Made by a program: the position numbers and the translations under genes. The notes beneath the pieces are model-generated. The model made no database searches. It was not told the origin of the DNA and worked only from the letters and a program-made list of their open reading frames with translations. A DNA stretch of 64,000 nt from Escherichia coli. Lineage in GTDB: Bacteria > Pseudomonadota > Gammaproteobacteria > Enterobacterales > Enterobacteriaceae. Location of the stretch: NCBI RefSeq assembly GCF_003334785.1, contig NZ_QOWV01000002.1; one strand, written 5' to 3'. Each line of letters opens with the position of its first letter. The first letter of the stretch is position 1. Below are positions 31,675 through 31,857 of this stretch, piece after piece.

Positions 31675-31857
31675 AGCCGTTGCCTGATGCGACGCGTAAT
31701 GCGTCTTATCAGGCCTACAGTGAACAGAACCGTAGGTCGGATAAGGCGTTCACGCCGCATCCGACAGCCGTTGCCTGATGCGACGCGTAATGCGTCTTAT
31801 CAGGCCTACAGTGTACAGAACCCCAGGGCGGATATGGCGTTCACGCCGCATCCGACA
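31675..31857. repeat. BIME: two tandem ~91-bp units each containing REP palindromes
   Basis: Direct repeat of gccgttgcctgatgcgacgcgtaatgcgtcttatcaggcctacagtg...ggataaggcgttcacgccgcatccgaca, two copies with a few mismatches. Confidence 0.85.

Follow-up and report, generated by a model that had tools for sequence, protein, structure and literature searches.

Repetitive extragenic palindromes (REPs) and the BIME arrays built from them are the commonest repeats in Escherichia coli. BIME-2 elements are tandem arrays of z2 and y REPs in which the S linker is short and the number of copies varies between strains, whereas BIME-1 elements combine z1 and y REPs with a long L linker that often bears an IHF site (Ton-Hoang et al., PMC3333891). 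On the RNA side, REPs protect transcript 3' ends, many of which belong to transcripts terminated by Rho further downstream (PMC6061677). On the DNA side, y REPs are cut by gyrase far more than z2 REPs, and the BIME-2 signal rises when transcription is blocked by rifampicin (PMC6379681). A well-described array of Y and Z2 REPs is REP325, which makes the yjdM mRNA upstream of it more stable and reduces yjdN downstream of it about 8-fold, in a partly Rho-dependent manner (bioRxiv 10.64898/2026.03.23.713779). REP325 also gives rise to naRNA4, a Y-linker-Z2 RNA that binds HU (PMC4550694). According to a preprint of 2026 by the same network of laboratories, REP325/naRNA4 was without effect on nucleoid volume or REP-REP contacts, and an effect of REP325 on nucleoid compaction was not detectable (bioRxiv 10.64898/2026.03.23.713779). 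Here, we describe how the array between trmJ and iscR compares with these systems.

The array between trmJ and iscR

The DNA analyzed is a stretch of 64,000 nucleotides of an E. coli genome, hereafter the window. Tandem Repeats Finder reported a single array at positions 31673-31857, with a period of 91, 2.0 copies, 94% matches, no indels, and a score of 335, and a repeat search resolved it into two head-to-tail copies (31673-31763 and 31764-31854) of 95% identity. Within 31000-32500, the top-scoring ungapped direct repeat of 91 nt had 86 of 91 positions identical at an offset of 91, whereas 200 dinucleotide-preserving shuffles of the same region gave a mean of 41.6 (sd 1.4) and a maximum of 46/91. 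This difference confirms the tandem BIME of two ~91-bp units that the first-pass annotation had placed in the trmJ/iscR interval. The flanking genes that it had named were borne out as well, by the open reading frames and by the RefSeq annotation of 100%-identical records. suhB (30011-30814, minus strand; ORF list and RefSeq naming) lies next to trmJ, whose coding sequence of 246 aa (30933-31673, plus strand) is taken from the ORF list and named in 100%-matching RefSeq records, and iscR (32034-32522, plus strand; ORF list and RefSeq) is the first gene of the Fe-S cluster operon, with iscS downstream of it. In the window, the gap between trmJ and iscR measures 360 nt. The array begins on the final base of the trmJ TAA stop codon and is located in the 3' untranslated region of trmJ, with 8 nt between the stop and the first REP stem and 43 nt between the end of the array and the first IscR operator match. 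Two adjacent matches to the IscR type-1 operator were found on the plus strand at 31901-31950 in a motif search (1 and 3 mismatches, with 0 expected by chance); they are context and lie outside the repeat. Overlapping open reading frames, such as 31639-31893 (plus strand) and 31750-31890 (minus strand), were discarded as by-products of the repeat in known intergenic DNA.

Each unit contains a Z2-type REP, a tail-to-tail linker, and an inverted Y-type REP. The proximal unit A (31673-31763, plus strand), delimited by repeat finding and comparison with unit B, carries an intact Y REP. Its Z2 REP at 31682-31718 (plus strand) matches the consensus and forms an RNA hairpin of -21.4 kcal/mol, its S-type linker AGTGAACAGAACC of 13 nt occupies 31719-31731 as judged from the sequence and the REP coordinates, and its Y REP at 31732-31765 (minus strand), likewise a consensus match, forms an RNA hairpin of -18.8 kcal/mol. 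A head-to-head linker of 7 nt, AGCCGTT (31766-31772), connects the two units; in the Rfam alignment from which it was delimited, it falls 6 nt short of the 'l' linker in the REP325/naRNA4 model. The distal unit B (31764-31857, plus strand) was defined by repeat finding, by the comparison of units and alleles, and by hairpin energies, and it is the sole unit of one-unit strains. Its Z2 REP (31773-31809, plus strand) is identical to that of unit A and has the same hairpin energy of -21.4 kcal/mol, and it is followed by a tail-to-tail linker of 13 nt at 31810-31822 (sequence and REP coordinates) and by a Y REP at about 31823-31856 (minus strand) that is degenerate at its foot, reading CCCAGGGCGGATATGG... 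where unit A has CGTAGGTCGGATAAGG.... The consensus scan missed this Y REP even at ≤7 errors, and its hairpin of -14.6 kcal/mol is not clearly better than those of shuffles (z = -1.8). Indeed, none of the five mismatches between the units (31723, 31732, 31733, 31737, and 31744) falls outside the linker and the Y REP foot. For the 216-nt stretch as a whole, the folding energy is -94.7 kcal/mol (z = -7.0). Hence, the near-identical direct repeats made of inverted REP palindromes seen in the first pass are real, with the qualification that the Y REP of unit B is degenerate.

The consensus scan found Z2 twice, at 4 errors each, and Y once, at 2 errors. The Y, Z1, and Z2 consensus strings used are upheld by the independent agreement of the Rfam naRNA4 model, which derives from REP325's Y-linker-Z2 units, and of the 'BIMEs2' listing in PMC6379681. 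With its Z2 and Y REPs, S linkers of 13 nt, tandem units, and a unit number that varies between strains, the trmJ-iscR array is an ordinary member of the E. coli BIME-2 family and not a new element. The K-12 locus has been entered in published Topo-seq tables as 'BIMEs2 2662088-2662353 <iscR-<yfhQ' (Sutormin et al., PMC6379681 Table DS3), and the element is therefore already known, although the MG1655 RefSeq record as retrieved (NC_000913.3 2661400-2663500) has no repeat feature annotated over the three-unit array that is present there. What is added here is only the count of alleles and the comparison of the site across species. The present array matters little beyond its correct annotation, which is BIME-2 and not an IHF-type BIME.

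Elsewhere in the window, a solitary Y-type REP without a partner lies at 20447-20480 (minus strand; 3 differences from the consensus). Above the gathering score, Rfam models matched the iscRS stability element at 32523-32632, between iscR and iscS, as well as ryfA (40007-40310), IS128 RNA (40442-40650), GlmY (2916-3063), and sroE (53479-53570). These matches are normal for this region of E. coli, as expected.

Alleles of the site in E. coli and in other species

Across 5,426 complete E. coli genomes, at least five alleles occupy the site. The polymorphic segment at 31667-31855 holds one, two, or three BIME-2 units or a 123-bp BoxC-containing element; its limits were drawn by eye in an allele alignment, in which the common sequence ends after AAGGCC and resumes at about ACAACAGGTAC, and are good to ±2 nt. 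The last sense codon of trmJ, GAA, and the TAA stop fall inside this segment. Unit B alone is present in M171-1 (trmJ-iscR gap of 269 nt), A+B in the window (360 nt), A+A in SEC470 (360 nt), and A+A+B in K-12 MG1655, strain 4A, and p10B (451 nt), while O103 RM8385 carries the 123-bp replacement element at positions 569-691 of the retrieved locus (300 nt). The replacement changes the end of trmJ from ..AAG GCC GAA TAA to ..AAG GCC TGA; the BoxC swap thus reaches into the gene, and TrmJ loses its last residue (..NKAE to ..NKA). The core of the element, CCCTCGCCCCTTCGGGGAGAGGGTTAGGGTGAGGGG, is one base off the BoxC/PIT/'TMECO' type-A motifs tabulated for MG1655 (PMC4666352).

The full replacement element was found in 1,450 of the 5,426 genomes (27%). 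For the remaining genomes, the allele query reaches 100% identity solely at sites with two adjoining A units; accordingly, 775 records at ≥99% identity represent A+A or A+A+B (about 14% of the genomes), 660 records at 95-99% represent A+B, which matches at 96.4% (about 12%), and the remainder of about 2,540 genomes (~47%) has a single B unit. The A+A allele of SEC470 falls in the same band as A+A+B, and the use of identity bands as an exact count of alleles with three or more units was therefore dropped. Two systematic samples agree with the genome-wide frequencies: one of 59 rows contained 34 one-unit, 15 BoxC, 7 three-unit, and 3 two-unit alleles, and one of 39 rows contained 18, 11, 4, and 6, respectively. 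Alleles with more than three units were not seen among these 98 rows. E. coli P276M, the sole sampled genome with a truncated trmJ flank match, has suhB and trmJ as frameshifted fragments and was set aside as what looks like an assembly-quality problem.

The first-pass annotation had held that a lack of strain-to-strain variation in unit number would speak against its view of the array; the comparison of strains shows one, two, and three units instead. The simplest route to a changed unit number is that the 91-bp units undergo unequal recombination, slippage, or conversion with one another. In SEC470 (positions 556-915 of the retrieved locus), both units are of the A type with an intact Y REP, unlike the A+B arrangement of the window, which points to conversion or recombination between units beyond gain and loss. 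The named strains suggest that the alleles follow lineages: the K-12 laboratory strains have A+A+B, O157, O103, and E24377A have BoxC, and an ST131 strain has one unit. In any case, the site offers a natural allelic series, from zero to three units or a BoxC swap that alters the C-terminal residue of TrmJ, beside a well-studied regulated promoter, and is thereby a convenient natural test bed for ideas on REPs as terminators or stabilizers and as topological insulators.

The same site was inspected in other species by scanning one genome per species with TrmJ, which returned 80 loci with trmJ-iscR gaps of 119 to 468 nt. A gap of about 120 nt, which corresponds to the iscR promoter region alone, is found in Franconibacter, Atlantibacter, Trabulsiella, Yokenella, Cedecea, and Mangrovibacter. 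In Escherichia albertii, one unit is present, whose Y REP is intact and whose linker carries the B-type base, and the ancestral state in Escherichia was therefore probably a single intact unit; given such an ancestor, the decay of the Y REP of unit B, the amplification of unit A, and the BoxC swap would probably all be derived. In Citrobacter amalonaticus and Kluyvera, two convergent REPs of a type proper to these bacteria begin 10 to 11 nt past the trmJ stop, Salmonella and Klebsiella have retained one REP, and in Superficieibacter electus, the gap of 468 nt contains a tandem array that was amplified independently and comprises at least three inverted REPs of the genus's own type. The two Pseudocitrobacter loci (gap of 244 nt) contain BoxC-type palindromes, CCCTCACCCTAACCCTCTCCC...GGGAGAGGG, which parallel the BoxC allele of E. 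coli, apparently as an independent event. Palindromic repeats have thus long had a niche directly 3' of trmJ, albeit a dispensable one.

Possible roles of the array

The K-12 iscR-yfhQ BIME-2 (265 bp) contains 3 gyrase cleavage sites mapped with ciprofloxacin, 6 with rifampicin plus ciprofloxacin, 4 with oxolinic acid, and 0 with microcin B17 (PMC6379681 Table DS3). Most BIME-2 rows of the same table list no gyrase cleavage site, and the K-12 trmJ-iscR locus is among the about 13 BIME-2s annotated with ≥3 sites (PMC6379681). Hence, DNA gyrase cleaves the three-unit allele in vivo and does so independently of transcription. The locus is one of the few BIME-2s for which gyrase cleavage has been mapped by experiment; these data describe the three-unit allele in a K-12 derivative and not the A+B allele of the window.

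With regard to the transcript, an intrinsic (Rho-independent) terminator was considered and rejected: none was predicted on the plus strand in 31500-32100, and no REP hairpin of the array precedes a T run or U tract. The K-12 Term-seq tables contain no 3' end inside the array, where reads in repeats may have been lost, and our literature search found nothing on a terminator between trmJ and iscR. A Rho-dependent region has been mapped nearby, with its peak at MG1655 2662135 (minus strand), corresponding to window position 32030 (plus strand), a Rho score of 3.06, and p = 3e-9 (Adams et al., PMC7815308 supplementary file 2). The reads upstream and downstream were 115/133 without bicyclomycin and 63/223 with it (PMC7815308). 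This measure compares 800-nt windows that span the promoter of iscR itself and is hence confounded, and the peak lies 173 nt past the array, in the 5' region of iscR; therefore, the signal is not assignable to the BIME. The 150 nt that follow the array would yield RNA biased toward C over G and of low GC (GC skew of -0.22 to -0.27). Together, the Rho region and this bias are weak hints at the trmJ-iscR locus.

The reading that we prefer, and to which we assign a probability of roughly 0.7, is that of a catalogued BIME-2 between trmJ and iscR that varies in unit number and is cleaved by gyrase in K-12, and that may act as an RNA stabilizer and attenuator and in the handling of supercoils, these roles being drawn by analogy with related arrays. 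The four stacked hairpins on the trmJ transcript would block 3'-to-5' exonucleases and in this way set and stabilize the 3' end of the trmJ mRNA. As in the REP325 array, the hairpins might also help to attenuate read-through into iscRSUA, in part with the aid of Rho. Gyrase acting at the Y REPs, finally, could absorb the positive supercoils that are driven by trmJ transcription toward the iscR promoter. The earlier proposal that the array limits trmJ read-through into the isc operon or acts as a topological barrier is plausible on the same grounds of analogy and, for read-through, in view of the nearby K-12 Rho region; both functions have been put forward in print for BIME-2/REP arrays. Any such effect is probably modest and dispensable, because ~47% of the strains carry a single, weakened unit and 27% lack REPs at the site altogether. 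An essential role is not to be expected, since 27% of E. coli and several genera with the ~120-nt gap lack the array and most strains retain just the unit whose Y hairpin is weakened. It is imaginable, though improbable, that the allele series serves as a lineage-specific dial on the leak of trmJ transcription or supercoiling into iscRSUA and on the amount of TrmJ; if so, lineages would differ heritably in basal isc expression with an unchanged iscR promoter.

A separate observation concerns the other end of the trmJ transcript. K-12 Term-seq recorded a very abundant RNA 3' end at MG1655 2663263 (minus strand), which is window position ~30993 (plus strand), 60 nt into trmJ; its scores of 212,633 and 260,603 are far above those of its neighbors, and it is flagged as not Rho dependent. 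The suhB-trmJ leader together with the first 60 nt of trmJ showed no significant structure (z = -0.67). This 3' end may belong to a short leader-derived RNA or to a product of premature termination or processing.

Two other readings start from proteins that bind related elements. The first-pass annotation had expected the array to bind gyrase or IHF; the gyrase half stands on the published cleavage of the K-12 allele (PMC6379681), and the IHF half falls, as the array has neither an L linker nor a match to the IHF consensus WATCAANNNNTTR at ≤1 mismatch in 31660-31875. The same search returned 12/13 matches at 10088 and 39144, in the L linkers of the two BIME-1 elements of the window (10042-10139 and 39099-39195), which consist of a Y REP, a ~35-nt linker with the IHF-like ATTCAAnnnnTTG, and an inverted Z1 REP and which served as positive controls. 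The general statement that some BIMEs bind IHF (PMC3333891) is the only point in favor of an IHF-binding insulator of the BIME-1/RIB type, and against the Z2 and Y composition, the linker of 13 nt instead of ~35 nt, and the missing consensus match where each BIME-1 of the window has one, we give that reading practically no credence. The junction module at 31735-31806 (plus strand), which comprises the Y REP of unit A, the linker, and the Z2 REP of unit B, scores 72.2 bits with the Rfam model of naRNA4 (RF02564), above the gathering score of 59.5, and naRNA4 has been described as the HU-binding Y-linker-Z2 RNA of REP325 (PMC4550694). It might thus be argued that the array encodes a similar RNA that binds HU and helps to condense the nucleoid. 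This is very unlikely: the match shows no more than a common make-up as Y/Z2 BIME-2 units, the linker has 6 nt fewer, the module is absent from the one-unit and BoxC alleles and thereby from ~74% of the strains, and even for naRNA4, a role in the nucleoid is now under dispute (bioRxiv 10.64898/2026.03.23.713779). The number of naRNA4 matches simply equals the number of units minus one, with 0 in one-unit alleles (including that of E. albertii) and in BoxC alleles, 1 in the window and SEC470, and 2 in K-12; the match reflects common BIME-2 building blocks and is not evidence for an HU-binding RNA.

The remaining alternatives concern the array's effect on its neighbors, or the lack of one. The array may be selfish or neutral, with its persistence and its unit changes produced by REP-family dynamics alone (RAYT/TnpA-REP activity, recombination, and conversion). 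The existence of five alleles, including full replacement by an unrelated BoxC element in 1,450/5,426 genomes, the empty sites of some genera, the retention in the commonest allele of only the unit with the decayed Y hairpin, and the generality of copy-number variation among BIME-2s (PMC3333891) are in line with this. We consider it a serious possibility but not the probable one, because a palindromic element lies directly after the trmJ stop in most of the Enterobacteriaceae examined, independent gains included, which suggests that structure at the 3' end is tolerated or favored there, and because gyrase does act on the K-12 allele (PMC6379681). By analogy with other stop-proximal REPs, the first hairpin could also lower TrmJ synthesis, if terminating ribosomes stall at it and mRNA cleavage and rescue by tmRNA follow. 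REPs separated from the stop by under 16 nt reportedly lower translation (Liang, Rudd and Deutscher 2015, in the summary given by PMC12306157), and in the array, the stem starts 8 nt past the trmJ stop, within the ≤15 nt that this summary sets for a stop-proximal REP; on the other hand, trmJ is absent from the supplements of PMC12306157. We regard such stalling as rather unlikely, and it may add to the preferred reading of a stabilizing and attenuating BIME-2. Finally, the 43 nt that separate the end of the array from the first IscR operator would fit an upstream regulatory part of the iscR promoter. This can hardly be the case, given that species and strains with no array or with a different element nonetheless conserve operators and promoter and that the unit number shifts the spacing in 91-bp steps while the promoter region is unaltered.

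Comparison with known repeat systems

As a BIME-2 of a two-unit allele, the array shares with its family the alternating Z2 and Y REPs, the short tail-to-tail linker, the tandem units, the extragenic position, the variable number, and, for the K-12 allele of the locus, cleavage by gyrase. Its local traits are the decayed distal Y REP, the head-to-head linker of 7 nt, and the direct contact with the trmJ stop. With BIME-1/RIB-RIP elements, it has in common a convergent REP pair 3' of genes; those elements are single-copy combinations of Z1 and Y around a conserved L linker of ~35 nt with an IHF site, features that the trmJ-iscR array does not have. The BoxC/PIT/TMECO intrastrand-triplex repeats (PMC4666352) are likewise short, GC rich, dispersed, and extragenic, and they occupy exactly the trmJ-iscR site in 27% of E. 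coli as well as in Pseudocitrobacter, but they form an unrelated sequence family that is absent from the window and replaces the BIME rather than accompanying it.

REP325 in the yjdM-yjdN interval, the source of naRNA1-6 (RF02564), is likewise a tandem Y/Z2 array between co-oriented genes, and the junction of the trmJ-iscR array aligns with it at 72 bits. By this analogy, the same dual role as stabilizer and attenuator would be expected for the trmJ-iscR array. The two differ in that REP325 has six units with an 'l' linker of 13 nt and lies inside an operon, whereas the trmJ-iscR array of the window has two units with a linker of 7 nt and, unlike REP325, is followed by a gene with its own strong, regulated promoter.
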